The position numbers and the translations under genes were made by a program. From positions 22,605 through 86,604 of the forward strand of contig LJUY01000006.1 of the NCBI GenBank assembly GCA_001304015.1: DNA of 64,000 bases. Direction: 5' to 3'. Shown here one piece after another: positions 25,975-48,784 of the stretch. The first letter of the stretch is position 1; each line of letters opens with the position of its first letter. The DNA is from a candidate division Zixibacteria bacterium SM23_81 (lineage in GTDB: Bacteria; SM23-81). The notes under the pieces are model-generated. The model did not search any database and was not told the DNA's origin. It was given only the letters and a program-made list of their open reading frames with translations.

Positions 25975-28781
25975 CCGAAGAAAAACTGAACCTTGGTCTC
26001 GGGGAAGATCCTGTCAAAATCGGTAATCTTGGCAAAGTCCAGCCGTAGAACGGTGAAATAACTCAGTCTGGCCCGCAGTCCCAGGCCAAAGGCACCGTGA
26101 ACCTGAGTCAGTTCCTTCTTGAGGCTGAGATCTTCGCTCCAAGCATTGCCGATGTCCATGAAAACGGCTCCCCGAATGGCCTGGAGTTCAAAATTCCCGA
26201 AAGGAAATCCCACTAGAAGGTTATCAATCACCGGGACTCTCAGTTCGTTATTCAACAGAATCAGTTTCCGTCCCATGAAGTACCTGCGAGGGTACCCTCT
26301 CATGTCCCAGCTTCCGCCCATATAGAATATCTGTGGTTCTGCCCCCTGGCTGTACAGACCGACCAGCCGAATGGCGTGACAGATCCTCCGGCTGAGCCGA
26401 AAATACTGACGCAGGTCACCCATGATGGTCCGATTAAACAGGCGACCTGACCACGGTCCCCAGGTAAGACCCATGGTCAAGTTCATCCTCAAGCCATCTA
26501 TGGGGCCCACCGGCCCCCAGAGGGAGGTGTCTTTGATGAAAGAAAGATAGGTAGAAGAAAGGAAGGCCGATCTCTTTCTTCCAGAATCGTAATTCTCCTT
26601 GTACGAATTCTTCAGGAAGGTACTCAACTCGAGTCTATGGAACTTAGAAAAGGGATGTCTTACCGCGACAAAACCCCCGTATTGCCGTTCGAAGTACCAA
26701 CCACGATAGGTATCGAAGTAGTCATCTACAAAGTGAAAACCCCCCGCTCCTATATTCGTGCGCCGGGAAAGGTTAAAATAGCTAAAGCCCAGGTTGAAGC
26801 TGGAAAGGAAATCCCGCCGGTCGCTGGCCGTGTTATTGAGCAAGAAATAGTATTGGTGATCCCCCAACATATCCGTCAATGCTATTTGAAGCCCCCCGCC
26901 AAGCCCCAAAACGGGATCGTATGAGATGGCGCTTTGAGCAATATCCAGGGAAAGCTTCTTTCGATACTTGGCTGGGGAAGGAGATCGAGCGGCAGGAAGT
27001 TTCATCGGCTCCCAAGGCTCCATTATCTGCTCCGGTCGTGAGGCTAAAACTCCAGGACCCAGGGAATCGGGGAGTTCCATACGATAGATTTGGAAGCGAC
27101 TTTGGCCATAGGCACAGAAGATGAGATGCTCTCCATTCTGGGACCAGTCGGGGTCAAAGACTCCTGTGAGAATATTGGTCAGTCGATGAACGCGACGATT
27201 CTGACCATTGACATCCTGGATGTACAGATTAAAAACGCCTTCCCGGTCCGAGCAGAAAACGATACGATTTCCCTCTGGCGCCCAGGAGGGTGATTGGTCA
27301 TTATGTGCCCCCTCAGTCAACCGCTCAAGGTCTCCGTCCTCCAGGCGACATAGATAGAGATTGTGAAATCCATGGCGACCTTGGGGGGAACGATCTGAGC
27401 TGAAAACCAAGGAACGGCCATCGGGAGACCAGCTCGGGTCCCGATCGTCATAAAGATCTGACGTGATCTGGCGAAGTTCACCACTGCGGACCTCTACTGC
27501 ATACAGGTTGACATGGCCATGGCGGTCAGCGGCCGAGAAAGCAATTCTGTCGCCCTGCGGCGACCAGCAAGGAGAGGACATGGAGATCAAGCGAGGAAAT
27601 TGGAACCTCTCTATAACCCGACCACTCTCCATGTCCCATAGGTAGAGGACATCTGTCTCCTGGCTTTTGGACACAAAGGCCAGGGTGCCAGAGCATGAAA
27701 CGTCCAGTTTGCTCTTGAGCAGATGCAGAGTTTCAAACTCGGTTGTTCGCTCACCTCGGATCAGGCGTCGAACCGCTTTCCCCTCCTCCCCAATGGTCAG
27801 CAGGTAAACGTCCACATATCCCATTCGATTGGTCATGAAGACGATCCCCCCGCCATTGGAATCCGTGGCGTGATAAACAGTCGGCTTCACGTTGGAGCCC
27901 ACAAAGGTCAACTGCTCAGCCGCCTGTTCTGGCATGTCAAGCTCCCTCAGCAGTGGATAATACCGTTTCTTGAGGCAATACTGCCACTTCCTATCCACCT
28001 CTTCGAGAGAGCTTCCCAGTGTCATTTCCAAGGCGTCGGGGAATTTCTTCGCCTTCCACCAATTTTCGCATAGCCGCAGGATTTTGTCCTCCCCATACCG
28101 CTGGGCGATAAACTCCACCGCAGACTGCCCCTCTTTATACATCTGAAAGGTGCCGTTGATGCGGTACATCTGATCCAAAGGCACCAGGTTCCCGGAGATG
28201 ACGGCATCTCGCAGGACCATCTCGGCCTCGGCATCCCATCGGCCGGACCAGTACTCGGCCAGCCCCTCGATCATCCACAGTGGGGGAAGATAATACTGAA
28301 ATTTATCGTGGTCCCGCAGCACGACCTTGAGCTTAGAGAGTGTGAACACATGAACGAGCTCATGCCGGATGACTTTCTCCAAGCTGGCATGGGAGCCCGT
28401 AAAGGGCACCACAACCCGACCCTTCATAAATTCCATAAAGCCGCCCACGCCCTCGGGCAGCATGGAGGGGATCGTGTTGGTCTGTTGAAAATAGTTATGC
28501 GCACTGTAGAGAATCAGGGGAATGGGGCGAGATATATGGTGATGAAACTTGGCCGCCAGTTGCTGGTAACTTTTTTCGGCCATGGCGGCCGCCGCCTCGG
28601 CTAACTCCCTTTCCTCGGAATAGAAGTAAATCTCGAGGTGATCGGTCTTCATGACCAGCCATTGAAAGTTGGTGTACTGAATCTTATTCTTGCCAAAATG
28701 ATACTGAGCCTGGCCATTTGCAAACAGGCCGAGGAGGCAGATCAGGCCAGTTGCCAGAAAGAGGGTTTTGATTTTTCTCAT
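25962..28781 (-). CDS. Multidomain outer-membrane protein: N-terminal HExxH domain, PD40/TolB-like beta-propeller repeats, C-terminal Omp85-like barrel
   Basis: Signal peptide; IRHELVHVF (HExxH); several PD40-type repeats (DRDPSWSPDGRSLVFSSDRS, DQSPSWAPEGNRIVFCSDREG); a C-terminal barrel ending FFFGWNY. Confidence 0.7.
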   Translation of the reverse strand: MRKIKTLFLATGLICLLGLFANGQAQYHFGKNKIQYTNFQWLVMKTDHLEIYFYSEERELAEAAAAMAEKSYQQLAAKFHHHISRPIPLILYSAHNYFQQTNTIPSMLPEGVGGFMEFMKGRVVVPFTGSHASLEKVIRHELVHVFTLSKLKVVLRDHDKFQYYLPPLWMIEGLAEYWSGRWDAEAEMVLRDAVISGNLVPLDQMYRINGTFQMYKEGQSAVEFIAQRYGEDKILRLCENWWKAKKFPDALEMTLGSSLEEVDRKWQYCLKKRYYPLLRELDMPEQAAEQLTFVGSNVKPTVYHATDSNGGGIVFMTNRMGYVDVYLLTIGEEGKAVRRLIRGERTTEFETLHLLKSKLDVSCSGTLAFVSKSQETDVLYLWDMESGRVIERFQFPRLISMSSPCWSPQGDRIAFSAADRHGHVNLYAVEVRSGELRQITSDLYDDRDPSWSPDGRSLVFSSDRSPQGRHGFHNLYLCRLEDGDLERLTEGAHNDQSPSWAPEGNRIVFCSDREGVFNLYIQDVNGQNRRVHRLTNILTGVFDPDWSQNGEHLIFCAYGQSRFQIYRMELPDSLGPGVLASRPEQIMEPWEPMKLPAARSPSPAKYRKKLSLDIAQSAISYDPVLGLGGGLQIALTDMLGDHQYYFLLNNTASDRRDFLSSFNLGFSYFNLSRRTNIGAGGFHFVDDYFDTYRGWYFERQYGGFVAVRHPFSKFHRLELSTFLKNSYKENYDSGRKRSAFLSSTYLSFIKDTSLWGPVGPIDGLRMNLTMGLTWGPWSGRLFNRTIMGDLRQYFRLSRRICHAIRLVGLYSQGAEPQIFYMGGSWDMRGYPRRYFMGRKLILLNNELRVPVIDNLLVGFPFGNFELQAIRGAVFMDIGNAWSEDLSLKKELTQVHGAFGLGLRARLSYFTVLRLDFAKITDFDRIFPETKVQFFFGWNY

Positions 28782-29012
28782 TATAGATATTTCCGCTCGT
28801 GGGTTTCAGTATCCTTCACCAAGAGAATACTCGACCATCAGTTTCGGCTAAGAAAACGGCTTAATACTAGCCCTTCTGTCCATTTTAAAATAGTTATCGA
28901 GCCTTCATCTGTCAACCTCAATTTATCGTTCGTACGGATCTATGTGGCTCAGATACATATTGCAGAAACGATAAAAATAAGAAGTTACCTCAATTAGTGG
29001 AGCAAAAAGGCG

Positions 29013-29041
29013 TTGACAAGATCAGATTGTAGCAATATATT
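29013..29041 (+). promoter_or_regulatory. Candidate sigma-70 promoter (TTGACA-N17-TATATT)
   Basis: Exact -35 hexamer at 29013-29018 and a near-consensus -10 at 29036-29041 with a 17-nt spacer, about 280 nt upstream of the sulfotransferase start. Confidence 0.3.
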
Positions 29042-29323
29042 GATTTAATGTCGGGAAGGTGCGAATTTTTCCTCTCCTTTGCGTGACAAGCTAGACTAAC
29101 CCACCAAAGGGGATAGATCAATCATAGCCAGTCTGTTCTATATTCGAGCAAGGCCTTAGGAACTATCAGCATGAAGGAACCTCTACGAGTAATTTCTGTG
29201 GATAAAGGTCTTCGATTGGTTCTTCTGCAGAGTTTCTTGACGAAAGGATTCGTGCAAAAAACTTTAGAGAAGTACATATTTTGAACTTAAGACAACAGAC
29301 CACTTTCCTTAGGAGTAATTACT

Positions 29324-30364
29324 GTGGTGGACGTGTCCCCTTTGTTTTTGATAGGCGCACAGAGATCGGGCACCACTCTTATGCGCCTGATACTGAATGC
29401 CCATTCGCAGATAGCCATTCCGGAAGAAGGTACCTTTTTAATGCCATTATTAAAAAAAAGGTTACTTAAACGGGAAATATCGGGCCCTTTTCTGAAAACT
29501 CTCCTTAGTTATTTTGCCTTAAATCCGCAGTTTAAACTATGGGGACATGACTTCAGTGAATATTTTGCACAACTCTCTAAAAGAGGTAGGACTACTGTCC
29601 GTGAATTGATGAGCGGTATTTTTTCCGTCTATTCTGGCAGCGAAGGCAAAATAATATGGGGGGACAAAACTCCTTCCTTCTTCAGAAAGATCGACATCCT
29701 CTTCGCCCTATTTCCCAAGGCCAAATTCATACATATTGTTCGCGACGGTAGAGATGTTTTTGACAGCTGGAGAAAAATGGATCCTTCTAAAAACAACTCC
29801 CCTCTTATAGCCATAGACTGGAGTTATAAACTATTTAGAATTGAAAAATCCTTCACCAAGATACCCCCCGAAAATAGAATAACGATTCGATATGAAGATC
29901 TCCTTGAAAATCCAGAAAAAGCCATAAAATCAGTCTGTTCCCTTGCGGGAGTCGAATATGAGGCCACGATGTTGGAATTCCATCGAACTAGCCATAAGTA
30001 TATTGGCACACACCACTCCAAACTGATATTTAAGCCTTTAAGCAAGAACAACAGGTACAAATGGAAAAACAATTTGACTAACCGGGAGACAAGGAGCTTT
30101 ACCCTCCTGGCCAGATATTTTCTAAAGAAGTATAATTATGAAATCGAAGACACCGGGATGAACATTCCTGACATGCTTTCTATACTTAAGAACATCATTA
30201 TCGGAGTTCCCATGAGAATAATGAGTGTATGGCGAGCAAAGAGATCTTTAGAAACAATCCTTAAGAAAGGGCAACTGATTGATTCCATGAAAGTTGGTGA
30301 ACTACCACGAGGCGTCCGAAAGAGGGCGGGGGGGATTAAAAACGCACCGGGGAAGGAGATCTGA
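29324..30364 (+). CDS. PAPS-dependent sulfotransferase (Sulfotransfer_3-like)
   Basis: 5'-PSB motif GAQRSGTTL and 3'-PB motif IVRDGRDVFDS. GTG start with an AGGAG Shine-Dalgarno 8 nt upstream. AT-rich gene. Confidence 0.8.
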   Translation: MVDVSPLFLIGAQRSGTTLMRLILNAHSQIAIPEEGTFLMPLLKKRLLKREISGPFLKTLLSYFALNPQFKLWGHDFSEYFAQLSKRGRTTVRELMSGIFSVYSGSEGKIIWGDKTPSFFRKIDILFALFPKAKFIHIVRDGRDVFDSWRKMDPSKNNSPLIAIDWSYKLFRIEKSFTKIPPENRITIRYEDLLENPEKAIKSVCSLAGVEYEATMLEFHRTSHKYIGTHHSKLIFKPLSKNNRYKWKNNLTNRETRSFTLLARYFLKKYNYEIEDTGMNIPDMLSILKNIIIGVPMRIMSVWRAKRSLETILKKGQLIDSMKVGELPRGVRKRAGGIKNAPGKEI

Positions 30365-30778
30365 GGATACCCTGAAGTTGGCAAAAGGGCTTCCAGTCAC
30401 ATTAAGAAAAAGGTAAGAGAAAAAGCCTCTCAAGCACAAACGAATGGGAATGACCGCTTGGGTCAAATCATTGGCAATTCAGCCGGTTCCTGAGTGGTTT
30501 TCCAGATCGCTTTTTGAACCAGTTGGAATCCCCATTTTGACAGCTTAAGCCATTAGAGCAATCCAAGCTGGTGTAAACCGCCACGGCTTTTCCTCGGCAA
30601 AAGACTGGCTACTGCCATCTGATGAACTTCTTCTTCACGACCTTGCATCCTTGACCTCCCACATAAATATAAAAAAGTCACCAGTAAGACTTTTCGAGGA
30701 TATTTTCAAAGAGCCAATTCGTATCGCCGATGTCCTGTTATTTAACAATAAGCTGTTGAAAAGAGGCACATATATATT

Positions 30779-31741
30779 ATGGAAGACATTCAATGCATTT
30801 TCTGCAACAGGAGCAGTGACCGAATTGTCATAGTAGAAAATGGATACACGGGCAGAAAATGTCCTCAGTGCGGTTTGATATTCATTTCACCACGGCCGAC
30901 TTTGGCCAAAATTTTGAATCTCTACGGTCACGATCAGACCGTCGTATCCGCTAGATCACATATATCAGCGGCTTTTAGCAAAAGGCTCTATGCAAAGCAC
31001 AATGTTCGTATAATTAAAAAATTTATAAAAACGGGTTCTATGCTGGAAATTGGTGCTGGTGCAGGATATTTCTTAGATGAAGCCAGAAAAGAGGGATTTG
31101 AAGTCTATGCGAATGAGCTCAATACTATTCTAGCTAATTATATTGAAAAAGTATTAGCAATACCTTGTGAAAGTTCTCCTTTGGATATTTCTCTCTTTAA
31201 CGGGAAGAAATTTGACATTATTTATCATTGTAATGTCCTAAGTCACTTGTATAACCCAGTCGTGGAATTTCAAAAGATTAATGATAAATTGAAAAAAAAT
31301 GGATTGGTTGTATTTCAGACTGGAAACCTTGGCGATGTAAAAGAAAAGTATTTTAAATTCATTTCAAAATTTATGTATCCAGACCATTTATTCTTTTTTA
31401 GTGAGGATAACTTACGGGAGCTGCTGAGACGAACTGGATTTGAATTTGTAAAAATACACAGATATTCTATATTACCACAGTTGATGTTTTCTAAAATGGC
31501 AAGAAAGGTAATGAATTTCGTCAAATCTAAAGCCAGAGCTAAAAACTTGGATCAACATAATCCGACTGAAGTTCCATCTTTTAATGTCCCTCATGCTCAC
31601 AACAACGCTGTCCATTTCAAGCAATTTATTAAGAATGCATATAGTTGTATTCTCTATCTTATTCGTTATAAAATAGGATACGTAATACCCAAAAAGCAAC
31701 GACCACAAACAGTTATTGTTGTTGCTCGCAGAACCAATTGA
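30779..31741 (+). CDS. Class I SAM-dependent methyltransferase with N-terminal Zn-ribbon
   Basis: CIFC...CPQC pair followed by SAM motif I LEIGAGAGYF and an acidic post-I residue (LDEARKEG). Confidence 0.75.
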   Translation: MEDIQCIFCNRSSDRIVIVENGYTGRKCPQCGLIFISPRPTLAKILNLYGHDQTVVSARSHISAAFSKRLYAKHNVRIIKKFIKTGSMLEIGAGAGYFLDEARKEGFEVYANELNTILANYIEKVLAIPCESSPLDISLFNGKKFDIIYHCNVLSHLYNPVVEFQKINDKLKKNGLVVFQTGNLGDVKEKYFKFISKFMYPDHLFFFSEDNLRELLRRTGFEFVKIHRYSILPQLMFSKMARKVMNFVKSKARAKNLDQHNPTEVPSFNVPHAHNNAVHFKQFIKNAYSCILYLIRYKIGYVIPKKQRPQTVIVVARRTN

Positions 31742-32100
31742 TGCCTCGCTTGACATTTGCTGGAGATATTGTAAGAACTTTTTCCCTACGGTATATGTTG
31801 TTCCTGTTGCCGTGGAAAGGCAAGACTTGGGATCTTATACCGGCCGTCAATCATATGGGCACTGGATGGCTGCAGGCCATCTGTCGGGAGTTATATTCCA
31901 GATACTACTGGATCGTTAAAAAGTTTGGAGAGGCTACCGGCATACCAGTCCTTATGAACACGTCTTTCAACCTACGCGGTAAGCTCATCGTAAGCAGTCC
32001 CGCCGGTGCGTGCAATACGTTTTCCAAAAGCGAAATAGACATATTGGTAATGAGCCAATATTTGGTAAATAAGGAGGCTTTTCAACGAATCGCCAACTAA
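31716..32100 (+). pseudogene. Carbamoyltransferase (NodU/CmcH family) C-terminal remnant, frameshifted
   Basis: IPAVNHMGTGWLQ...GIPVLMNTSFNLRG...IVSSPAGACNTF matches the conserved carbamoyltransferase C-terminal domain. The preceding segment (VVPVAVERQ) sits in a different frame, with a shift near 31835. The ~450 N-terminal residues are absent. Confidence 0.55.
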
Positions 32101-32108
32101 TAAAAAAG

Positions 32109-33287
32109 TTGTCGCTATCAGTCTTCTCCGTCTTGGCGACGCTTGTGGTCATCGAGGGGGCCCTTCGAGTTGTCAAGTTAGCGCCGACTGTCCATCATCG
32201 GCGGCAGGTGCATGAGCTATTTTGTGAGCATGACTCTCTGCTCGGATGGCGTAAAATTCCAAACTTCTCTGGATTGCGCGTAACCGAGGAGTATCAGGTT
32301 TTGGAGAAGTTCAATTCGAAGAGTATACGCGGTCCAGAGTATTCTTATGACAAGGAAGAGGGAAGCCTTCGTATACTCATCCTGGGAGACTCGTTTGTTG
32401 AAGGTTACACGGTTCCTTTTGAAAGCTTGTTCTCTGAAACAATGGAGAGGGAGCTAAAACAAGCAGGTGTATCCGCTCAAGTTATCAATATGGGCACAGG
32501 AGGATACAGTACTGACCAGGAGCTGTTGCGCTTTGAACAAGAAGGTGTCAAATATCATCCCGATATCGTCGTGCTCATGGTCTATAGTAACGACATTTGG
32601 TATAATGCTCAGAATATATATTGGATAGGACCAAAACCGATGTTCATCATCGAAGATGATGAGCTCAGGCTCACCAACGTTCCCGTGCCACTTCCGTCCG
32701 AGGGTGGGGACATCTTCGCTCAGAGAGAGCTTGGCTTCCACCGCAAGCTCATGAAATGGTTTGGGGAGAACTTTTACTTGTATCGACTGCTGGCTAAGGC
32801 CGTGACGAATGTGCATTGGTCGCGGAATATCGCTGCATCGTTAGGCCTTATTGAAGGAGGGATACCAGATCAATTAAGGGTATGGCAACGGGAACATGAT
32901 CCTGAAGTGCGTTTTGCATGGGACATCACCAAAAGGCTTCTTCTCAGACTTGAGGAGCGCGTTGAGCGATCCGGGGGAAAATTCATCATTTCCTACGTTC
33001 CGGAGCGAGCAAGCATTTATCCGCAAGAATGGGCTGCAACGAAGAGGAAGTACGGCCTCTCCGATCAGGAGTGGAGCATTGAGCAAGTGGGAATAGATTT
33101 AGAACAATTTTGTCGCCAACACTCTATACCATTTGTAGACCCGACCCGGCGATTTAGAGAAGCGGCCGATGAATTGCACTCCAGCGGTGAGAGCCTCTAT
33201 TGCGTAACAGAGGGACATTGGAATGTCAGCGGACACCGATTAGTCGGAGAAATATTGGCCCAGTATATTGAAGATTTGCTGGAATGA
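32109..33287 (+). CDS. SGNH/GDSL-family hydrolase with N-terminal membrane anchor
   Basis: ILILGDSFVEGY (GDS-x block I) and a hydrophobic N-terminus. Only a TTG start is available in frame, so the start is uncertain. Confidence 0.6.
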   Translation: MSLSVFSVLATLVVIEGALRVVKLAPTVHHRRQVHELFCEHDSLLGWRKIPNFSGLRVTEEYQVLEKFNSKSIRGPEYSYDKEEGSLRILILGDSFVEGYTVPFESLFSETMERELKQAGVSAQVINMGTGGYSTDQELLRFEQEGVKYHPDIVVLMVYSNDIWYNAQNIYWIGPKPMFIIEDDELRLTNVPVPLPSEGGDIFAQRELGFHRKLMKWFGENFYLYRLLAKAVTNVHWSRNIAASLGLIEGGIPDQLRVWQREHDPEVRFAWDITKRLLLRLEERVERSGGKFIISYVPERASIYPQEWAATKRKYGLSDQEWSIEQVGIDLEQFCRQHSIPFVDPTRRFREAADELHSSGESLYCVTEGHWNVSGHRLVGEILAQYIEDLLE

Positions 33288-33461
33288 AAAAGACGAGAAT
33301 ATTCATGTGAACTTCCCATCAACAGGTTGCCTTGATTCAGTCACTCCTCCATGACCATGAGGAGAACACGCTCATGGGAATGTCATCTTTTCCCAACGCT
33401 TGAATTCTCAAACATTGTAAAAAAGTTCTCTCTTCTGACAAACATTCATCTTCATTTTGCA

Positions 33462-33487
33462 TAAAAAAAGCCACTGTTTCCGGCGGC
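33462..33487 (-). terminator. Weak candidate terminator after the T9SS hydrolase-like gene
   Basis: On the minus strand a short GC stem (GCCGC...GTGGC with one G-U) is followed by a T7 run. Confidence 0.3.
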
Positions 33488-33514
33488 CACTTCTTGCCCA
33501 CCTTCCCTGCCCCT

Positions 33515-35440
33515 TTACTTGACCAGCAGCATCTTACAAGTTTCCCTGAAATCGCCAGCCTCAAGTGAGCAGAAGTACACTCCACTGGCCACTTCCTCCC
33601 CTCGACCGTTTCTTGCATCCCAAGATATCTGGTACTCCCCTGGTGGCTGATTCTCCTCCACCAGGGTTTTGACCGACTGTCCCAAGGAATTGTATATCCT
33701 TACCTCTACCGGCGCCTCCACAAGCAGATGATAACGAATGTTGGTGGAACCATTGAAGGGATTGGGAAAATTCTGCCACAGCTTATACTTTGAGGGCCTC
33801 GAACCTGATAAGTTGTCAGCAGATCTTTTCAGCTCTATAGCCGTCAGGGAGTGGGCGGGAAATGTATACGAAAAACTCGTATCAACAGAAGCCAAGGTTG
33901 AGTGTATGATGGTGACTGTATTGGGATCGTCCTCGTTATGAGCGGTGATGTCGGGCCCATTCAGAGTCCAAATGTTGGCCTCAGGGTGGGGCTCAAATCC
34001 CACCACCTGGATGGCCACCTCGACATCTTGTTCAAGTTGTTTATTGATCACCATGATATGCAGTTTTTTCTTTGCGGTGTCAATTGAGGTCGCGACGGAC
34101 AGTTCTGGGACTGCGGGCATGGCTGGAACGCAAGAAACTCTAACGGTTGAAAATGTGTTGCAGTCGATGGTGTTGTCAAGCAGCATATCGCCGCAATGTT
34201 CTGTGAACATCTGCTGTGCGTAGTACATTGGCCTTGCGAACCTGCGTGGCGGCCCCCAAGCGTAGCCGATGTGCCCGTGATAGACGTTGGAGCAGAGCAT
34301 CCAGCTGCAGACGAACTCGATATCCCATTCGGGGCCGTCTTCCAAAAACATCATCAGCAAATCGGCGTAATAGAGGCCCGCCAGAAGGCTGACAGCTGAC
34401 TGTTTGCCAGTTTTCTCAAAGTTAATTCCGTTGCTTCCAGCCACAATGCTGATATATGGATCAGCCTCTTGGTTAATAATCTCTCTCAACTCGCCGATGT
34501 CAATGGGCGCCTGTTGTGTTGCCGCCATGCAACCGCGGTATATATCCTCTATATCGTCGGGTAAAGCGTATGTACCAGGGTATCCCGTGTGGATGTCCAA
34601 AAAATCCATATAGCCGCAGGCGATGCTCACCAGGGCGGCGTTCCATTCCAAAGAATCCCCAGATTGAATAAAGTGGGGAATGACGACTCCAGAAACCCCG
34701 ATCTTGATCGTCGGGTCAACGGCTTTCATGGCTTCGGAGAAAGCACAGAAATCTTGTGCGTAGGTGATGACGTCCATGCCCACTTTGGGATTGTGTATCT
34801 CGTCGCCAACAACCCAGTATTTAACGCCGTATGGTTCAGGATGTCCGTTTTCGGCTCTTACTGCTGCCCAATCCGTGCCCCCTCTGGGGTTGGTGCCGTC
34901 GTTGGGCGCATTGCAGTATTCCACCCAATTGGTGGCTCTTTCTATTTTTTGTGTCAGGGGTGCTGTTTTGGATAGGTCACCGTCCATAATGCCAGAGACG
35001 GGATTAACGCAGATAAACGCCTCTGCCCCGATCATTTCGCACAGGGCCATGTGTTCGTCTGTGCCGTAGTGGAAATTACGGTCGGGTTGGCTGGGGCGTG
35101 AGTCTGGTCTGAGGTTATGGGGGCCGATGCCGTCTTCCCAGAAGTATTCATTGGCACCCCCTGGAAATCGCATTATGGTGGGTCGCAGGCCCAATACCAG
35201 CTCCTCGGCCTCTGGCGCAAATCCCCAGACCGTAAGGCTGTCGGGCTGTGTCATATCCAGCAGTCTGTTGCCGTGATGATGGGGTTGCGAGTTGCCCAGG
35301 AAAAGCGGATTAACAGGGCCAAGATACTCATTGGCATAGACGGAAATGGTGGCCGCCGATAACGGGGTCACTAACGGAGGGCAGAAAAACAGGAGAGATG
35401 GGAGAAAAAAGAAGAGAATCGCCTGTGTTGTCCTCCTCAT
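33515..35440 (-). CDS. Secreted TIM-barrel-like glycoside-hydrolase-like protein with T9SS C-terminal sorting domain
   Basis: Signal peptide after the ATG at 35440 (GGAGG Shine-Dalgarno 5 nt upstream). A central ~450-aa domain with alternating beta/alpha character (WVVGDEIHN region). The C-terminal NFPNPFNGSTNIRY...VRIYNSLGQSVKTL...ASGVYFCSLEAG...KMLLVK is a canonical T9SS CTD. The hydrolase family is not assignable by eye. Confidence 0.65.
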   Translation of the reverse strand: MRRTTQAILFFFLPSLLFFCPPLVTPLSAATISVYANEYLGPVNPLFLGNSQPHHHGNRLLDMTQPDSLTVWGFAPEAEELVLGLRPTIMRFPGGANEYFWEDGIGPHNLRPDSRPSQPDRNFHYGTDEHMALCEMIGAEAFICVNPVSGIMDGDLSKTAPLTQKIERATNWVEYCNAPNDGTNPRGGTDWAAVRAENGHPEPYGVKYWVVGDEIHNPKVGMDVITYAQDFCAFSEAMKAVDPTIKIGVSGVVIPHFIQSGDSLEWNAALVSIACGYMDFLDIHTGYPGTYALPDDIEDIYRGCMAATQQAPIDIGELREIINQEADPYISIVAGSNGINFEKTGKQSAVSLLAGLYYADLLMMFLEDGPEWDIEFVCSWMLCSNVYHGHIGYAWGPPRRFARPMYYAQQMFTEHCGDMLLDNTIDCNTFSTVRVSCVPAMPAVPELSVATSIDTAKKKLHIMVINKQLEQDVEVAIQVVGFEPHPEANIWTLNGPDITAHNEDDPNTVTIIHSTLASVDTSFSYTFPAHSLTAIELKRSADNLSGSRPSKYKLWQNFPNPFNGSTNIRYHLLVEAPVEVRIYNSLGQSVKTLVEENQPPGEYQISWDARNGRGEEVASGVYFCSLEAGDFRETCKMLLVK

Positions 35441-35830: not shown

Positions 35831-36679
35831 TTACTTTTCAATCATGGGCGAAGGTACAAAACTCGCCGCCACCTCAGCGCCAGTTACGACGACTACTCCG
35901 GGGTTGGAAGCGGCGATCTTTATAAAATTTCTAAAAGCCGCTAATCTCCCCTTTTCCTTCCCTAACATCCAGGGATGGAAACCGATGGCAAAACATTTTC
36001 CCAGATGTTCAGGCTGCAAATACATCAACCACTGAGAAAGCATCTCTGGGGGTGATATACCTTTTCTAATATACATCCCATCAGTGCTTACTAGAGGGAT
36101 TCTCAGTATCTTCTCTCCGCGCCCTGGTGTTTCTCCCGCACATTTGATCCAATGCAGATTCTGCCAGGAGGATTTGGACGCTCTATCAATGTTATATCTA
36201 AAGCCAAGCGTGATCAGAATTTTCATCAAGGCATGTGACCAAGCGCCGTATGGGGAGCGAAAGCCCCAAAGCTCTACTGTGAATTTGCGTCTGAAGAACT
36301 CCTTTGCCTTGTGAATATCATAACGCAAATCATCTGCTGACATTTTAAGCGGTGCAACATGTCCAAAAGTATGGCAGGCTATTTCATGGCCATCCCTGAT
36401 GAGGTGTTCGATGGTTTCAGGATATTTCTCAGCAACATGCCCAACGCAATTCCAGGTACTCTTCACTCTATACTCACAGAGAATGCGCAAGATTTCATGA
36501 AAGACGTCAGATGACAATTCGCCTTGCTCGTTCCCAAACTCACGTTCGTAGTCGAAAGACAGAACGAGCCGGATCTTGCCGGAATCCTCGGCTGTCGGCC
36601 GGATGAGTTCGTGGCGCACAGATATATTCCGTATCTTCCGCCTCAAACGGTAAGGAATGAAACCGAACTGTTCAAACAA
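35831..36679 (-). CDS. Polysaccharide deacetylase (NodB-homology domain)
   Basis: NodB-domain motifs IACHTFGHV, a LVLSFDY segment and a RSPYGAW block. Confidence 0.8.
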   Translation of the reverse strand: MFEQFGFIPYRLRRKIRNISVRHELIRPTAEDSGKIRLVLSFDYEREFGNEQGELSSDVFHEILRILCEYRVKSTWNCVGHVAEKYPETIEHLIRDGHEIACHTFGHVAPLKMSADDLRYDIHKAKEFFRRKFTVELWGFRSPYGAWSHALMKILITLGFRYNIDRASKSSWQNLHWIKCAGETPGRGEKILRIPLVSTDGMYIRKGISPPEMLSQWLMYLQPEHLGKCFAIGFHPWMLGKEKGRLAAFRNFIKIAASNPGVVVVTGAEVAASFVPSPMIEK

Positions 36680-36844
36680 GAGTGACCGTCTCCTCCATAT
36701 CTGATACTCATCTCATCAGCGCTAGGCAAATACAACTCATTTTGTCCTCAACAATCACCAAGTTCTTAAAAAAAGTAGAGAGCCCAAGAAGTGTTGCCGA
36801 TGCCCTGTTTTGGTCAGCTAAAATCTATGGGTATTGAGTTAGCT

Positions 36845-37711
36845 TCATATCAACCCTGGTGCCCAATCGAGAAGAATTTCAATAAGATGTTGCTGCTTAC
36901 AAAGCGGCGTAAAGGTATGATCTGTATCTTGAATAACTTCTATCCTTAATTTGCCATATTTCTTCAACTCATGAATCTCATCTCCGAGTCTGCTTTGTAG
37001 GTAGTCCAAACCTCGATCGCCTCCGGAGTAAATAAAGAGAGGGCTAATGCCGCGGGCTGACAATACCTGCAAATCTGCTACCAGATTGTTCGCTCTTGAA
37101 GACATATCTCTTTTACGAACAAACAAGCGCTTTATCTGACTCGTGGTTGATCGTATAATCTGCTGGTAACGAGACTTCCCTTTCATCGCTCTTCGCCAAC
37201 TTTTGAGACTAAACAAGGCACTTCTCCAGTAATGGCGAGCTACTCTGTCATATACCACAGAAGACCGCATCTCTTCATTATCATCAAAATACACCGGAGC
37301 ATTGATGGGAACAACACCCACAACTCGAGGATCACACAAAGCCGCTTTAAATGATATAACTGCTCCAGAACATATGCCAATGAGAATAAATCGATCAATG
37401 CCTCTTGTCGCATTCAGATAGTTCAGCGCTTCCTGGGTTTCGTTAATCGCTCTCTCATCGGAAAGAGATTCAACCTCACTTGCTCTGCTGTCTCCAATTC
37501 CAGAGAAGTCAAATCTCAATACAAAGAACCCTTCCTCAGCCAACTTCCGCGCCGCTTTCACGTAGAGACGATGGGGACCGACTCGATGCAAGAATCCAGA
37601 ATTGAGAAAGACAAACGCAGGAAAGTCATTGCCACTGAAAACCGGAGTTGGCTCGGTAATGATACCAACCAAAGATTTGGTTTTCCCAAAAAGCACAGCT
37701 TTGTCTCTCAT
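36845..37711 (-). CDS. Alpha/beta-hydrolase fold protein (Cys at nucleophile elbow)
   Basis: LRFDFSGIGDS, then nucleophile-elbow sequence GICSG (G-x-C-x-G). Paralogous to the upstream gene and overlaps it by 4 nt. Confidence 0.7.
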   Translation of the reverse strand: MRDKAVLFGKTKSLVGIITEPTPVFSGNDFPAFVFLNSGFLHRVGPHRLYVKAARKLAEEGFFVLRFDFSGIGDSRASEVESLSDERAINETQEALNYLNATRGIDRFILIGICSGAVISFKAALCDPRVVGVVPINAPVYFDDNEEMRSSVVYDRVARHYWRSALFSLKSWRRAMKGKSRYQQIIRSTTSQIKRLFVRKRDMSSRANNLVADLQVLSARGISPLFIYSGGDRGLDYLQSRLGDEIHELKKYGKLRIEVIQDTDHTFTPLCKQQHLIEILLDWAPGLI

Positions 37712-38526
37712 GGGAACATCTCAGAAATCCAGGAGACCACAAACTGCAGTACTTTAATAGGTACCATGCCCTGACCCCAGTCATCCCTTTCAATCCAAGG
37801 TTCAAAACCAGGGATGTGTTTATACCGCAAAGAAACACCAATGCTGTTTAGATGCTCACGAAACCTTCCATCCTCACTCACGTCACTGCTTTCGATGAAC
37901 AGTATTTTGCTAGCCGGTTTCTGCCGAATTGCGTAAAGGTCCAACTTTTCAAGATCTTTCAGCATAGAATCTGGAAGGGGAAACCCAAGCGCTTCTCTGT
38001 AACTTTCTCCTTCGGAGAAGGACTTTACCCCAGGAAAAAAGTTCCTTATCTTTTCCTGATGCAAGGTTGTCAGCTCCTCAATGTATTTCCTTCCATTGAT
38101 AACCGGATTCCAAAGGACTATACCATCAATATCACCTCGTTCGGCTCCAGCCAGCATCGCAAGGTTGCCCCCTAAACGAAGGCCCGCTAAACAAATCTGA
38201 TTCAGATCGCTTCCGCCTTTTAGTTCTTCTACCGCCGTTGATATATCGGCAAGCCATTGGCGAATTTCGCCCTGGTCGCTATCGCCCTCAGAATCACCAC
38301 ATCCGTAATAATCAAACCGTAAGGTGTGAAAACCAGCCGAAGAAAGAAGCATAGCTAATCGTACAAAGGCACGATGAGAACGGATGTAGTCTTCCCCCAT
38401 GGGATAACACAGAATAACTCCAACATTGCGAGCTTTTTCGAGTTGTGGCGGGTGATAAATCCCAAAAAGCGATCTGGCTGAATTCCCGAAATAGAATGGC
38501 TCCATCATATCATACTCAGATATCAC
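37708..38526 (-). CDS. Alpha/beta-hydrolase fold protein, paralog (Arg at nucleophile-elbow position)
   Basis: LRFDYYGCGDS aligns with the partner. The corresponding elbow reads GLRLG (G-x-R-x-G) by hand alignment. Confidence 0.7.
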   Translation of the reverse strand: MISEYDMMEPFYFGNSARSLFGIYHPPQLEKARNVGVILCYPMGEDYIRSHRAFVRLAMLLSSAGFHTLRFDYYGCGDSEGDSDQGEIRQWLADISTAVEELKGGSDLNQICLAGLRLGGNLAMLAGAERGDIDGIVLWNPVINGRKYIEELTTLHQEKIRNFFPGVKSFSEGESYREALGFPLPDSMLKDLEKLDLYAIRQKPASKILFIESSDVSEDGRFREHLNSIGVSLRYKHIPGFEPWIERDDWGQGMVPIKVLQFVVSWISEMFP

Positions 38527-39214
38527 TCCGGTTGTTGGAATCTCCTACTGTCATTCCAGTAAAAATATAGCCTCGATGAAAGAAAAACTTACCCTTATGG
38601 CAAGTTCCCTTCGCAAAAAAGAGATCGGTATCAGCCATATATCTGGCTTCGAACTCACCAATATTTGGATTCACAGAAATGGTTATATCATGAAAATTCA
38701 CCCATCTTTTGCTGGTTGTATATTGACATTTATAAAAGCATTCCTTTGCACTAAAGATAAGAGCGATATATTCTTGCTGAACATCGAGAGGCAAAGAATG
38801 TATCCATGACAACTCTTGTTTGGTGCATATTGCTTTCCAATAATCCCGCTCTAATCTGCCTACACACTCCGCATCGAATCCCACGCTTTCGATCTCTGTT
38901 TTCCGGGCAAGGGCTACTCCACAGTACCCCTCGGTATGGGAGATGCTGCCAATGATACCGGGCGGCCAAATAGGACTTCTGTCAGTGGCCATCAATATGG
39001 GAAAATTTCTTATGGCCACTTGGGCTAAGGCCCTGCGAGCACAGAGACGTCCAGCGATGAATTCTTGTTTTCTTTTGGGCACGGCGTTGCATATGAACGC
39101 CTCTTCTTGGGGATAAAGCGTCCCTTCGCTGAATACAGGATTTGCCTCCTCTGTTATGACTTGATCAGGAAAAAGGCAAGCTATGATGGTATGATCGCAC
39201 TTTTCTGTTAACAT
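38516..39214 (-). CDS. 4'-phosphopantetheinyl transferase (Sfp/EntD type)
   Basis: GSISHTEGYCGVALA and VGFDAE core motifs. Confidence 0.8.
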   Translation of the reverse strand: MLTEKCDHTIIACLFPDQVITEEANPVFSEGTLYPQEEAFICNAVPKRKQEFIAGRLCARRALAQVAIRNFPILMATDRSPIWPPGIIGSISHTEGYCGVALARKTEIESVGFDAECVGRLERDYWKAICTKQELSWIHSLPLDVQQEYIALIFSAKECFYKCQYTTSKRWVNFHDITISVNPNIGEFEARYMADTDLFFAKGTCHKGKFFFHRGYIFTGMTVGDSNNRSDI

Positions 39215-39216
39215 AG

Positions 39217-42200
39217 TTACTTCTTCTGCAATTGTCTTTCCAAATTGGCCGACATTTGGCCCAAAGTTTGATTGACAAATTCTGCAAAAGGCACTTCTAT
39301 ATTAAGATTCTCTTCTATCAATGAGATTGCTCGAATGACCAAAAGCGAATGTCCTCCCAGATCAAAGAAATTGTCATGAAGCCCGACTTTATCAACGCCT
39401 AATACACCTCTCCAGATCTCAGCGATCTTTTTTTCCATGGAACTACGTGGCGCGATGTAATCCAACTTCTCTATTTCGTGACCCTCGCTCAATTGACGCA
39501 AAAGCTGGTAATCAATTTTACCATTAGGAGTGAGAGGAATGGCATCAAGTGGAATAAATTGAGAGGGAATCATGTAATCAGGAAGCACCTCTCTCAAGAA
39601 ACGCCGTAAGGACAAAGAGGAGACAAGCTCGTCACAGATGATATATGCGATTAACCTTTTATCTCCCTGGCCAATATCGGATGTTACTACAACGCAATCT
39701 TTGATGACTTCATGCTTGGACAGCGCTGATTCTATCTCACCTAATTCAATACGAAATCCCCGGATCTTCACCTGCTGGTCGATGCGCCCCAAAAACTCGA
39801 TGTTCCCATCGGGCAAATAGCGGGTCAAATCCCCTGTCTTGTACAAACGTGCGCCTGGCTTCTCATTGAAGACGTTGGGGACGAACTTCTCCGCTGTCAA
39901 CTCTGGATGCTTTAGATAACCCCTGGCCAGGCCCACACCTCCAATGTGCAATTCAGCCGGCACGCCAATGGGAACGGGTTGTAAATGGGCATCCAGCAGA
40001 AAAACTTGCGTGTTGCTAATAGGCCGACCAATAGGTGGCGTTCGCCTATCTTCTGCGCATTCAGCTACGGTTGACCAGATGGTATCTTCGGTGGGACCAT
40101 AGAGGTTAAAGATACGACGTCCCTTGATCCAGCGTGGAACGAGGTCTCCAGGACAGGCTTCTCCAGCTACATTGAGTATTCCCAACGCCGGTAATTTCTC
40201 GGTCGGTAAGGCACCCAGAACCGATGGGGTGAGTACCATACAAGTTATGCTCAAATCTTGCATTAACTTTATCAGGGCGGGGCCGGGTAGCAGGGTCTCC
40301 TCCTTCCCCAGGCAGAGCGTTGCTCCAACTCGCAAAGCCAAAACGATATCGAAGATTGATGCATCAAAACTAAAAGAAAAAAACTGCAGGACACGGTCGG
40401 TAGAGCCGAGCTTAAATGTCCTCATATGTGCGTCAGACACATTACATAGACCACCGTGCGTCACAAGGACGCCTTTGGGTTTACCCGTAGATCCCGAGGT
40501 GTAAATCACATAGGCCAGGTTGTCGGGCATCACACCGCTGATGGGATTCTTCTCGCTCAGTTCATGGATGGTGGCCCAATCTGTATCCAAGCAGACCACA
40601 CGTGCCCTATGCTCAGGCAATCCAGCGAGCAACTTTTCTTGAGTCAACAGCACCGGCACTTGGGAGTCTGACAGCATGAAGGCCAGGCGTTTCTTGGGAT
40701 AGGCCGGGTCTAAGGGCATAAACGCTCCGCCAGCCTTGAGCACACCGAGTAGTCCCACTATCATCTCCAATGACCGCTCCATGCATATCCCCACGGGCAC
40801 CTCTGGTCCCACGCCAAGATTCCGCAAGTGGTGCGCCAACTGATTGGCACGTGCATTCAAGGCACGATAGGTCAACTGCTCCCCTTCATAAACCACACCG
40901 ATGGCGTCGGGCGTCCGCCCCACCTGATCTTCAAACAGATGGTGGAAACACGTATTCTGGGGATAATCCGCCCCGGTATCGTTCCATTCCACGAGCATTT
41001 GGTGACGCTCTGTGGTTGAGAAAAGCGGAAGGTCCCAGATAGGCCGGTCTGGATGAGCAACAACGCCTTCCAGCAGAATCTGGTATTGTTTCGCCATCCG
41101 GGCAATAGTGGCAGCATCAAATAAGTCTGTATTGTACTCCAACGACCCGATCAGCCCTTCTCCTGTATCCTTCACGATCAGAGTCAAGTCAAACTTCGCT
41201 GTTCCTGTGTGGACCTCCTCCGCGGAGCCAAACACCAGTCCCGGGAGCTCCACATCCTGCCTGGGAGCATCCTGCAGAACAAACATCACCTGAAACAGCG
41301 GATTGCGGCTCATATCCCGCTCCGGCTGTATTTCCTCAACAAGTTTCTCAAAGGGCAGATCTTGATGAGCATAAGCCCTCAGTGCTTCTTGGCGCACTCG
41401 ATCTAACAATTCCCGAAAGGTTGGCCTTCCCGAGAGATCGGTCCGCATCACCAGTGTGTTGACGAAGAAGCCTATCAATCTCTCCAGCTCGGCCCGGTTA
41501 CGATTGGCGATAACCGAGCCCACAACGATGTCTTCCTGGCCGCTATAACGAGCGAGCAAGGTCACGAAGACCGCCAGCAGAGTCATAAACAGACTGGTCC
41601 CTGAACGTTGACTCAGGGCTCTTAGATTTCCTCTCAGTTGAGAATCGATCTCAAGGTGCTCGATACTCCCCTGGAAGGTCTGAACTGCCGGTCGAGGACG
41701 ATCAGTGGGAAGCTCCAGCACAGGGATATTGGCAAGATGATTCTTCCAGTAGGCCAGCTGTGCCTCCAACACATCTCCCTCTAAACAACGCCGTTGCCAA
41801 ATAGCATAGTCTGCATACTGAATGGGCAGTTCGGTCAGCGGTGAGGGTTTTTTGGAAGAGAAAGCCTCGTAGAGTGCCGCCAACTCCCGAAAGATGATTC
41901 CCAGAGACCAACCATCGGAGATAATGTGGTGCATGGTCACAAGCAACACATGCTCCTTTTCATCCAGACATAGGAGCTTGGCGCGCAGTAGCGGCCCACG
42001 GGTTAGGTTAAAAGTCCGCTTAGCCTCCTCAGCAGCCAGCCTTTGCAGCTCAGCCTCCTGTTCTGATCCCGGGAGTTCCCGAAGGGCAATCACTGGCAGG
42101 GTTAGGTTCTGAGCAGGGGTCACAACCTGAAATGGTTGTCCATCCAGCGCCACAAAAGCAGTCCGCAAGATTTCATGACGCCGCACGATTTCTCCGAGAG

Positions 42201-42501
42201 TCCGCTCGAGCGCCGCCACATCGAGCGAACCTCTCAGGCGCAAGTGCACAGGCATGTTGTAGAAAGGATTGTCAGAGACCAATTGTTCGAGAAACCACAA
42301 CCCCTGTTGGGAAAAGGAGGCCAACACGAACTTTCTATGTTCACCTAAAAGAGTGAGAATCTCTGCCTTACGTTTTGAAAGTTCCCTCCGCGAAGATGGC
42401 GTGAGAACTCCTTCAGGTGCACGACAGTGTACTTTACCACTCTCGGTCCAGAGTTCTACTCCCTTTTGTAAAAGGTTGGCTAGAAAGCTAACGGTATTCA
42501 T
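39217..42501 (-). CDS. Non-ribosomal peptide synthetase, module 2 (docking region-C-A-T)
   Basis: Condensation motif HHIISDGWS. Adenylation cores LTYRALNARANQLA, YTSGSTGKPKGV, FDASIFD, NLYGPTE, YKTGDL, GRIDQQVKIRGFRIELGEIE. Thiolation domain FFDLGGHSL. No TE or reductase domain. Confidence 0.95.
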   Translation of the reverse strand: MNTVSFLANLLQKGVELWTESGKVHCRAPEGVLTPSSRRELSKRKAEILTLLGEHRKFVLASFSQQGLWFLEQLVSDNPFYNMPVHLRLRGSLDVAALERTLGEIVRRHEILRTAFVALDGQPFQVVTPAQNLTLPVIALRELPGSEQEAELQRLAAEEAKRTFNLTRGPLLRAKLLCLDEKEHVLLVTMHHIISDGWSLGIIFRELAALYEAFSSKKPSPLTELPIQYADYAIWQRRCLEGDVLEAQLAYWKNHLANIPVLELPTDRPRPAVQTFQGSIEHLEIDSQLRGNLRALSQRSGTSLFMTLLAVFVTLLARYSGQEDIVVGSVIANRNRAELERLIGFFVNTLVMRTDLSGRPTFRELLDRVRQEALRAYAHQDLPFEKLVEEIQPERDMSRNPLFQVMFVLQDAPRQDVELPGLVFGSAEEVHTGTAKFDLTLIVKDTGEGLIGSLEYNTDLFDAATIARMAKQYQILLEGVVAHPDRPIWDLPLFSTTERHQMLVEWNDTGADYPQNTCFHHLFEDQVGRTPDAIGVVYEGEQLTYRALNARANQLAHHLRNLGVGPEVPVGICMERSLEMIVGLLGVLKAGGAFMPLDPAYPKKRLAFMLSDSQVPVLLTQEKLLAGLPEHRARVVCLDTDWATIHELSEKNPISGVMPDNLAYVIYTSGSTGKPKGVLVTHGGLCNVSDAHMRTFKLGSTDRVLQFFSFSFDASIFDIVLALRVGATLCLGKEETLLPGPALIKLMQDLSITCMVLTPSVLGALPTEKLPALGILNVAGEACPGDLVPRWIKGRRIFNLYGPTEDTIWSTVAECAEDRRTPPIGRPISNTQVFLLDAHLQPVPIGVPAELHIGGVGLARGYLKHPELTAEKFVPNVFNEKPGARLYKTGDLTRYLPDGNIEFLGRIDQQVKIRGFRIELGEIESALSKHEVIKDCVVVTSDIGQGDKRLIAYIICDELVSSLSLRRFLREVLPDYMIPSQFIPLDAIPLTPNGKIDYQLLRQLSEGHEIEKLDYIAPRSSMEKKIAEIWRGVLGVDKVGLHDNFFDLGGHSLLVIRAISLIEENLNIEVPFAEFVNQTLGQMSANLERQLQKK

Positions 42502-48116: not shown

Positions 48117-48129
48117 TCAATCTGTGGAC

Positions 48130-48765: not shown

Positions 48766-48784
48766 TTTAGGATCCTCCTTGAAC

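Follow-up and report, generated by a model that had tools for sequence, protein, structure and literature searches.

The window analysed here (64,000 nucleotides of contig LJUY01000006.1 of candidate division Zixibacteria bacterium SM23_81, a 64-kb stretch) contains, between a minus-strand gene for an Omp85-like protein and a minus-strand gene for a type IX secretion system (T9SS) glycosidase, a group of plus-strand genes at 29324-33287 that encode a 3'-phosphoadenosine 5'-phosphosulfate (PAPS)-dependent sulfotransferase, a Zn-ribbon S-adenosylmethionine (SAM) methyltransferase, the remnant of a carbamoyltransferase and a membrane-anchored GDSL hydrolase. We believe, with a probability of about 0.65, that this interval is a variable glycan-tailoring slot in a conserved envelope locus, and that a low-GC segment carrying the sulfotransferase and methyltransferase genes replaced part of a cassette like the one still intact in a related locus, L015. 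The interval appears to be a mosaic, made up of a foreign segment and half of an inherited cassette, and not the single island that the original prediction had made of 28782-33300. The features of a replacement islet are all present: the site holds different genes in different relatives, the composition deviates, and the junctions are marked by truncated genes. Our verdict is an ordinary glycan-tailoring replacement islet, a case of the routine turnover of surface-glycan genes.

Occupants of the slot in related loci

Related loci were gathered by a search with the Omp85-like protein and from contigs that encode homologues of the slot proteins. This gave about a dozen loci of the same family with collinear flanks, whose Omp85-like proteins are 66-78% identical to that of the window (a metagenome scan for further copies of the site gave 8 loci, several of them short). 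The conserved gene order is TonB receptor, SurA, BamB-like protein, Omp85-like protein, the slot, T9SS glycosidase, sulfatase/Phosphodiest (alkaline-phosphatase-superfamily) genes, CysC, Phosphodiest and a family 4 glycosyltransferase (GT4), followed by Sat. The gap between the Omp85-like and T9SS glycosidase genes is a variable slot with at least five occupancy states at one site. It is empty in L003 (a 425-bp spacer); it holds only a minus-strand glycosyltransferase gene of family 1/4 (GT1) in L025 and L026 (L020 and L023 show at least GT1); it holds GT1 together with plus-strand genes for a DUF5989 protein, a 172-aa membrane protein, a 597-aa carbamoyltransferase and a 394-aa GDSL protein in L015; it holds only a plus-strand sulfotransferase gene in L005, L007, L008/L009 and L022 (in L021 only the start of this gene is present, at the contig end); and in the window it holds the sulfotransferase and methyltransferase genes, the carbamoyltransferase stub and the GDSL gene. 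In this family the gap often carries a gene or cassette on the plus strand, and the sulfotransferase gene at the same position in a second clade (L005, L007, L008/L009, L021 and L022) means that the strand switch recurs and is not specific to the window's lineage. L015 is among the closest relatives found, with an Omp85-like protein that is 77% identical to the window's. The arrangement in the window is base-for-base identical in two other assemblies, L001 and L002, so an assembly artefact or chimera can be ruled out.

The sulfotransferases at the slot seem not always to have travelled with their neighbours. The Omp85-like protein of L007 is 83-85% identical to those of L005 and L008, whereas its sulfotransferase is only 52-54% identical to theirs and its T9SS glycosidase 50%; the sulfotransferase values are at odds with those of the flanking genes and point to allele exchange at the slot. 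A two-gene segment of L007 (10001-13629, sulfotransferase plus T9SS glycosidase) seems to have been exchanged too, relative to L005 and L008, since identities of 50-54% in it contrast with 83-87% for the Omp85-like proteins of the flank. The syntenic sulfotransferases are 56-62% identical to the window's, within a family that has more than 650 homologues in the databases, and in a neighbour-joining tree the window protein groups with P0002 (locus L028) and the syntenic L007 copy, inside a clade of all syntenic copies. P0002 comes from a 2-kb contig of GC 0.42, where its right-hand neighbour is the T9SS gene, present as its 3' end, and its left-hand neighbour is a gene other than that for the Omp85-like protein. 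The compositionally odd allele is found in the window's lineage only; the GC content at third codon positions (GC3) of the gene is host-like in four relatives, so low GC is not intrinsic to it. This history fits repeated allele exchange within the lineage, which here would have drawn on a lower-GC relative.

The methyltransferase gene was not seen at the slot in any relative examined. Its family is large and well conserved; the best full-length match, 70% identical, lies on a 1.1-kb contig, and the two homologues that were checked (65-67% identical) come from contigs of GC 0.31-0.42, where they are part of Wzx/GT4/AsnB polysaccharide loci.

Composition and junctions of the low-GC segment

The GC profile drops from 0.52-0.56 in the left flank (27-28.6 kb) to 0.30-0.45 in 28650-31800, with a minimum of 0.30 at 31200-31500, and is back up at 0.45-0.50 in 31800-33300; the strongly AT-rich part is thus only the left two-thirds of 28782-33300. 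The original prediction had described that whole interval as AT-rich. The dip itself and the switch to the plus strand are confirmed by the GC profile and the map of open reading frames (ORFs), and Pfam agrees with the four gene identities it proposed; the AT-richness belongs to 28650-31800 and does not extend over 31800-33300. The codon usage of the individual genes, which is not uniform, was compared with that of a core set of 26 genes, either housekeeping genes or genes from stretches of the locus conserved among relatives (GC3 0.630, standard deviation 0.053). By this measure the methyltransferase gene is the most foreign-looking of the slot genes, followed by the sulfotransferase gene, in which GC1 and GC2 are shifted as well as GC3 (Table 1). 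The spacers of the slot show no AT excess (GC 0.39-0.44, against 0.37-0.49 in other intergenic spacers of the window), and no coding remnant was detected in the 414-bp spacer. Genes and spacers together confine the deviant segment essentially to 28.8-31.75 kb. Further low-GC patches are present in the window at 36-39.2 kb, 45.8-46.5 kb and 50.5-53.1 kb; the dip is real, and it is not unique.

Table 1. Features of the slot, its flanks and the putative PAPS-synthesis genes (positions in the window; z values are relative to the 26 core genes)
Feature	Position	Strand	GC3	GC3 z	Karlin codon bias z	Remarks
Omp85-like gene, 939 aa	25962-28781	-				Peptidase_MA + PD40 + Omp85 domain fusion (Pfam); left flank
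GT1 3' stub, decayed	28785-28839	-				Directly upstream of the Omp85-like ATG; left scar
AT-rich leader of inserted segment	28840-29323	+				GC ~0.39
PAPS-dependent sulfotransferase, 346 aa, cytoplasmic	29324-30364	+	0.455	-3.3	+3.7	Pfam Sulfotransfer_3, E 8e-36
Non-coding spacer, 414 bp	30365-30778	.				Between sulfotransferase and methyltransferase; GC 0.43, local peak 0.49
Zn-ribbon class I SAM methyltransferase, 320 aa	30779-31741	+	0.315	-5.9	+6.3	Methyltransf_23, E 5e-21, after CxxC...CxxC
Carbamoyltransferase remnant, 5'-truncated	31741-32100 (frame 31738/31741)	+	0.53	-1.8	+3.2 (118 codons only, noisy)	Last ~100 of ~597 codons; right scar
Membrane-anchored SGNH/GDSL hydrolase, 392 aa, AlgX-related	32109-33287	+	0.52	-2.1	+1.2	Lipase_GDSL_2, E 2e-11
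T9SS GH51-like glycosidase, 654 aa	33515-35479	-				T9SS sorting tail; right flank
Adenylyl-sulfate kinase CysC	48130-48765	-				NCBIfam PRK00889, 249 bits (cut-off 244); putative PAPS supplier
Sulfate adenylyltransferase Sat, homomeric	53259-54410	-				PRK04149, 526 bits (cut-off 387); Pfam ATP-sulfurylase (PF01747) + PUA_2; putative supplier of adenosine 5'-phosphosulfate (APS)

At the left edge of the segment lies what is left of a GT1 gene. This stub matches the 3' end of the L015 GT1 gene at 43 of 54 nt, with indels that break the reading frame; the local alignment score is 36, compared with 14.3±2.1 (maximum 25) in 500 shuffles (z = 10.4), and the 3' end of the L026 GT1 gene gives z = 8.1. 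An intact GT1 gene occupies the position of the stub in L015, L020, L023, L025 and L026. The leader that follows has no ORF with a Pfam match and no homology to the spacers of relatives; it includes a promoter-like sigma-70 site at 29013-29041 (+) (TTGACA-17-TATATT, 11/12 matches, about 280 nt upstream of the sulfotransferase gene), which is a consensus match only. Apart from the GT1 stub, no coding remnant was found in 28782-29323 or 30365-30778 by tblastn with all ORFs of at least 40 aa from 20-odd related loci or by Pfam scans of the spacer ORFs. A sliding identity profile shows no recombination breakpoint within the Omp85-like gene, where the window is closest to L015 or L003 almost throughout. 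A decayed GT1 3' stub is also found upstream of the Omp85-like gene of L003 (about 4720-4817) despite its "empty" slot; GT1 was lost there as well, either independently or in a shared ancestor.

At the right edge the carbamoyltransferase stub matches only model positions 73-170 of 170 of Carbam_trans_C and has no Carbam_trans_N match, and tblastn with the intact 597-aa L015 carbamoyltransferase aligns only residues 495-594 (window 31774-32073, 69% identical). Having lost the whole N-terminal domain, the stub cannot be a carbamoyltransferase. Its frame is open, its ATG overlaps the methyltransferase stop (TGATG), and it has no extra decay relative to the GDSL gene, which points to a probably recent truncation or to a frame preserved for translational coupling. 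Beyond this point the window is collinear with L015 in a single 2-kb DNA alignment (window 31788-33793 and L015 9676-11648, 68.7% identity) that spans the GDSL gene and the spacer and reaches the 3' end of the T9SS gene, and the GDSL protein is 62% identical to its L015 orthologue, which adjoins the intact carbamoyltransferase gene. This collinearity and their near-host composition indicate that the stub and the GDSL gene were inherited and not acquired. The L015 homology begins at 31788 and the methyltransferase stop ends at 31741, which places the right junction within about 46 nt.

Two truncated genes at its edges thus bracket a low-GC segment of about 2.9 kb (28840 to ~31787) that replaced older genes. 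The immediate ancestor would have been L015-like, with GT1 upstream of the Omp85-like gene and, on the opposite strand, a cassette resembling SxtK/SxtJ/SxtI/SxtL of the saxitoxin cluster (discussed below). One replacement, or two closely spaced events, would have removed the stretch between GT1, whose last ~55 nt were spared, and roughly codon 495 of the carbamoyltransferase gene, at the cost of GT1, the DUF5989 gene, the gene for the small membrane protein and ~83% of the carbamoyltransferase gene; the incoming DNA would have brought a sulfotransferase of the type that fills the slot in the sister clade and a methyltransferase of a family that occurs in polysaccharide loci. The horizontal acquisition proposed for the whole block is supported by the foreign-looking composition of the sulfotransferase/methyltransferase segment and does not apply to the inherited stub and GDSL gene, and the proposed erosion is seen in the truncated carbamoyltransferase and GT1 genes and not in the three full-length genes, which retain the catalytic or binding residues that are invariant in their families. 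The further suggestion that uniform codon usage or best matches within the same lineage would speak against acquisition has a mixed outcome, since codon usage varies among the genes and the nearest relatives of the sulfotransferase belong to the same lineage as the flanking genes.

No machinery for such an exchange was recognised. There is no integrase, transposase or other mobility domain in Pfam scans of the window, spacer ORFs included (the absence of the first two had been correctly noted before), no tRNA gene in the 64 kb and no Rfam match, and the flanking direct or inverted repeats are chance-level matches of 14-28 nt; neither the repeats nor the tRNA that had been suggested as possible boundary marks were found. 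A classical genomic island, integrase-mediated and tRNA-associated, was rejected on these grounds.

The encoded enzymes and alternative readings

For each of the three full-length genes we examined the columns that are conserved in at least 90% of about 80 homologues. In the sulfotransferase 1 of 79 such columns deviates (family median 2). Its Pfam scores are well above the cut-offs (PF13469, 124.7 bits against 27; PF00685, 42.1 against 22), and it keeps the 5'-PSB loop GAQRSGTT and the RDGRD...S motif that are invariant in the family (G11, Q13, R14, S15, G16, T18 and R140-D-G-R-D144...S148, each invariant across 37 members). In this fold such residues bind PAPS, as the 5'-phosphosulfate loop and the 3'-phosphate motif, respectively, and we assign them accordingly. 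The protein has no hydrophobic segments, signal peptide or membrane anchor. An AlphaFold2 model of it has a confidence score (pLDDT) of 91, and its best Foldseek matches in the PDB are TPST1/2 and the CurM and OLS sulfotransferases (CurM ST and OLS ST; E 1e-9 to 1e-11), which at 18-22% identity indicate similarity at the level of the fold only.

The methyltransferase deviates at 4 of 87 conserved columns (family median 2), retains the family-invariant C6, C9, C28 and C31 and the ExGxGxG motif at 90-96, and has no hydrophobic segments. The nearest solved sequences are sugar C-methyltransferases of the TcaB9 type (~90 residues aligned, E ~1e-5). TcaB9 carries a Cys4 zinc domain, and the window protein likewise has a four-cysteine N-terminal motif followed by a class I SAM domain; it is about 100 residues shorter, and the likeness extends over those ~90 aligned residues only.

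The GDSL protein has one N-terminal hydrophobic helix, which serves as its predicted anchor, a Lipase_GDSL_2 match of 45.4 bits (cut-off 32.9) and weak ALGX and SGNH matches. Blocks I, II, III and V are present (G93-D94-S95, G132, N161 and H370), the acid of block V being E368 in place of the D found in at least 90% of the family, and 5 of 85 conserved columns deviate (median 3); for all three proteins the number of deviations is within the range of the family. The AlphaFold2 model (pLDDT 89) is closest to CgnD, acetyl-xylan esterases and TesA in the PDB. An acetyltransferase of the AlgX/AlgJ type was considered and rejected: the ALGX score is 20.2 bits against a cut-off of 26.5, and the 50 best PDB fold matches do not include AlgX. 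The scanned ORFs of the window included no gene for an MBOAT (AlgI-like) partner.

The genomic context of homologues suggests a glycan acceptor for the sulfotransferase. Elsewhere its homologues (56-63% identical) lie beside genes for a Wzx flippase, GT4, AsnB, a MurJ-like protein and CDP-glycerol glycerophosphotransferase (Glyphos_transf), and a GDSL homologue (47% identical) lies in a Wzx/Wzy/glycosyltransferase polysaccharide locus; the deacetylase gene beside a GDSL homologue in another Zixibacteria genome, L017, proved unrelated to the window deacetylase and not its orthologue. Sat and CysC would make PAPS (CysC has the same relative position in L007 and L008), with which the cytoplasmic sulfotransferase would O-sulfate a sugar in a surface glycan or glycolipid that the neighbouring glycosyltransferases assemble; methylation of a nucleotide-activated or lipid-linked sugar would fall to the methyltransferase, also cytoplasmic; and the membrane-anchored SGNH enzyme would remove or transfer an ester group, presumably outside the cytoplasm. 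O-carbamoylation would have been lost. The net effect would be a lineage-specific change in the decoration of the surface glycan, akin to serotype variation. It is possible, and we propose it tentatively, that lineages of these sediment bacteria swap the slot occupant in this way and make a sulfated surface glycan or glycolipid with serotype-like decoration. If so, sulfated bacterial glycans reach well beyond the cyanobacteria, at which the conserved pairing of PAPS synthesis and sulfotransferase genes in Zixibacteria-like genomes also hints, and the family of ~340-aa sulfotransferases, with members labelled Brocadia, Desulfofervidus, Schekmanbacteria, Eiseniibacteriota and Flavobacteriia, would be a general polysaccharide sulfotransferase family.

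Several points weigh against a glycan-tailoring replacement. No donor was found for either gene, the best matches being 62-63% identical for the sulfotransferase (P0002/L028, 62%) and 70% for the methyltransferase. The sulfotransferase tree is a neighbour-joining tree without bootstrap support and has long branches, and the taxon labels of the relatives disagree (Candidatus Zixiibacteriota for L004, Gemmatimonadota for L005). The GC3 values of the sulfotransferase and methyltransferase genes (0.455 and 0.315) are 0.14 apart, a difference of over 3 standard errors, and two separate acquisitions may therefore make up the 2.9-kb segment. The similarity of the GT1 stub could partly reflect conservation of the Omp85 translation-initiation region, and the replacement model leaves the 414-bp spacer unexplained. 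Finally, among solved sulfotransferase folds the nearest have peptides (TPST) or acyl-acyl carrier protein (CurM ST) as substrates and not sugars, and CgnD, the nearest SGNH fold to the GDSL protein, is a peptide-processing enzyme.

These last fold matches would suit an alternative in which the sulfotransferase and methyltransferase tailor the product of the non-ribosomal peptide synthetase (NRPS) genes in 35831-46457, giving a sulfated, methylated lipopeptide; the methyltransferase insertion and the NRPS block are both lineage-specific and only about 2 kb apart. We nevertheless consider this unlikely: the sulfotransferases with which the window protein groups fill the slot in relatives that have no NRPS genes in the 10 kb examined, close homologues of both enzymes lie in polysaccharide loci that have no NRPS genes, the slot genes are on the opposite strand with the conserved T9SS gene between, and the structural matches carry no more than the fold-level meaning given above.

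It is also quite unlikely that no transfer took place, and that compositional drift or low-expression codon usage in old accessory genes, with an internal deletion in the carbamoyltransferase gene, produced the present arrangement. Low GC is common in glycan loci and occurs in other patches of the window, the sulfotransferase groups with copies from the same lineage, and mobility genes, tRNA and repeats are lacking, all of which agree with that view. Against it, the sulfotransferase gene has host-like GC3 in four relatives and is shifted here at GC1 and GC2 too, the methyltransferase gene is absent from the site in every relative examined, and the sharp GC step at 31741-31800 coincides with the homology breakpoint. 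Moreover, an internal carbamoyltransferase deletion cannot explain why GT1, DUF5989 and the SxtJ-like gene have gone and a stub of GT1 is left.

A tyrosine sulfotransferase of the RaxST/TPST type, acting on a secreted or outer-membrane protein such as the adjacent T9SS glycosidase or a substrate of the Omp85-like protein, is very unlikely. The TPSTs are the top structural matches of the window sulfotransferase, and the gene is conserved beside genes for secreted and outer-membrane proteins; on the other side stand the absence of a signal peptide or membrane anchor, the presence of the 56-63% identical homologues within polysaccharide loci, and a fold match that is family-level at ~20% identity.

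The original prediction had likened the block, with the nearby deacetylase and PAPS-synthesis genes, to the tailoring enzymes of Nod-factor (lipo-chitooligosaccharide) biosynthesis. The two share superfamilies (sulfotransferase, SAM methyltransferase, NodU/CmcH carbamoyltransferase and NodB-fold deacetylase) and PAPS dependence, and the likeness goes no further than that level. Scores against the NCBIfam equivalog models are far below their cut-offs (NoeE, 34 of 500; NodU, 33 of 1000 for the stub and 137 of 1000 for the intact L015 homologue; NodB, 65 of 240), NodS and NodH have no NCBIfam match at E < 1e-3, and NodA and NodC have none among window ORFs of at least 150 aa (Pfam, and NCBIfam on a subset); the sole family 2 glycosyltransferase (GT2) in the window, of 248 aa, is ArnC/AglJ-like. 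The window uses a homomeric Sat and a separate CysC and not CysDN of the NodPQ type, and the "NodB-type" deacetylase lies beyond the T9SS gene, in a separate lineage-specific block. With the stub and GDSL gene collinear with L015 and near host composition, the sulfotransferase at a position common to the sister clade and the intact genes free of erosion, it is highly improbable that 28782-33300 is one acquired and eroding island of this kind, in spite of the aberrant composition and the pseudogene that it does contain.

Neighbouring blocks and comparison with known systems

The block at 35831-46457 encodes a polysaccharide deacetylase, two alpha/beta hydrolases, a phosphopantetheinyl transferase (PPTase), two NRPS condensation-adenylation-thiolation (C-A-T) modules (one with a TubC docking domain) and an MbtH-like protein. 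It is absent from L003, L005, L007, L008 and L015, in which the T9SS glycosidase gene is followed directly by the sulfatase/Phosphodiest genes, and is a second, larger lineage-specific insertion; its small genes have GC3 values of 0.41-0.50, and those of the NRPS genes are near host values. The MbtH-like ORF (45825-46457, 210 aa) is an odd fusion, with MbtH at residues 6-58 and a C-terminal region that matches CBF_beta, a eukaryotic family (PF02312; 32 bits, cut-off 25; E 9.5e-8). The T9SS GH51-like protein, 654 aa in the window, is 833-850 aa long in relatives; residues ~539-742 of the L015 orthologue (fn3 / Pur_ac_phosph_N) have no counterpart in the window protein, which indicates an internal domain deletion. 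A terminator-like hairpin (33469-33488, -; a consensus match only) lies just downstream of the stop of the T9SS gene.

Interleaved with CysC are genes for three paralogous cytoplasmic proteins of the alkaline-phosphatase superfamily (PF01663) without signal peptides (window 46755-51981, L007 14010-21071, L008 14112-19219). The family as a whole conserves them, and in some relatives a PF00884 sulfatase is present in addition. A third low-GC3 patch at 50458-53146 includes genes for a Phosphodiest-family protein (GC3 0.45) and a GT4 (GC3 0.40), the best NCBIfam match of the latter, below the cut-off, being a PEP-CTERM/XrtA-system glycosyltransferase; it may be another exchanged segment. Farther to the right, at 58922-63237, genes for a radical-SAM aminomutase of the KamA family (633 aa, with a long extension at the N terminus), an LPG_synthase_TM protein that is flippase-like and a ligase of the ATP-grasp type are grouped beside ArnB/ArnC/ArnT-like genes, which suggests beta-amino-acid modification of a lipid or glycan.

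O-antigen and capsule loci are known for low-GC cassettes that are exchanged between conserved flanks. The slot shares with their variable regions the conserved flanks, alternating content, lower GC and deviant codon usage, junction remnants, tailoring enzymes and a cassette without mobility genes. It differs in being small (0-5 genes), in its flanks (an Omp85-like/peptidase fusion and a T9SS glycosidase, not the classical ones), in belonging to an uncultured organism, and in that no Wzx/Wzy or ABC export genes were recognised in the window. It is an example of the exchange of glycan-tailoring genes without mobile-element machinery in an uncultured phylum, in which both scars and the pre-replacement state survive; this makes it a clean, datable case of cassette replacement, in what is otherwise routine accessory-gene turnover.

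The ancestral cassette has a closer architectural match in the saxitoxin cluster than in the Nod set. That cluster contains sxtI (O-carbamoyltransferase), sxtJ and sxtK (small ORFs) and sxtL (GDSL protein, a proposed decarbamoylase), along with the SxtN sulfotransferase and the SxtO APS kinase, and the functions of SxtJ, SxtK and SxtL are proposed only (PMC2679770, PMC2885083). Compared by architecture alone, the L015 cassette has the same four parts, namely a DUF5989 protein, a small membrane protein (the 172-aa L015 protein, which has no NCBIfam match), a ~600-aa carbamoyltransferase and a ~400-aa GDSL protein. Two of these persist in the window, the GDSL gene whole and the carbamoyltransferase gene as its 3' end, with a sulfotransferase and an APS kinase nearby. 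Its context is one of glycan and envelope genes, unlike that of saxitoxin, and none of the saxitoxin core genes that these two papers name, sxtG, sxtH and sxtU among them, was recognised in the window ORFs scanned. The occurrence of the carbamoyltransferase/DUF5989/small-membrane-protein/GDSL module in a glycan context could help to assign functions to SxtJ, SxtK and SxtL.

For sulfation, the nearest characterised analogues appear to be XssA and XssE of the synechan cluster of Synechocystis PCC 6803, PAPS-type sulfotransferases of the PF13469/PF00685 families that are inferred to sulfate sugars; sulfated polysaccharides among bacteria have been reported essentially from cyanobacteria only (PMC8205485). 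By family and context alone, the window sulfotransferase resembles them in belonging to the same Pfam family and in having homologues in Wzx/glycosyltransferase loci. It differs in that no regulator of the xssQ/R/S type and no complete Wzx/Wzy set accompany it, and in the phylum in which it is found.

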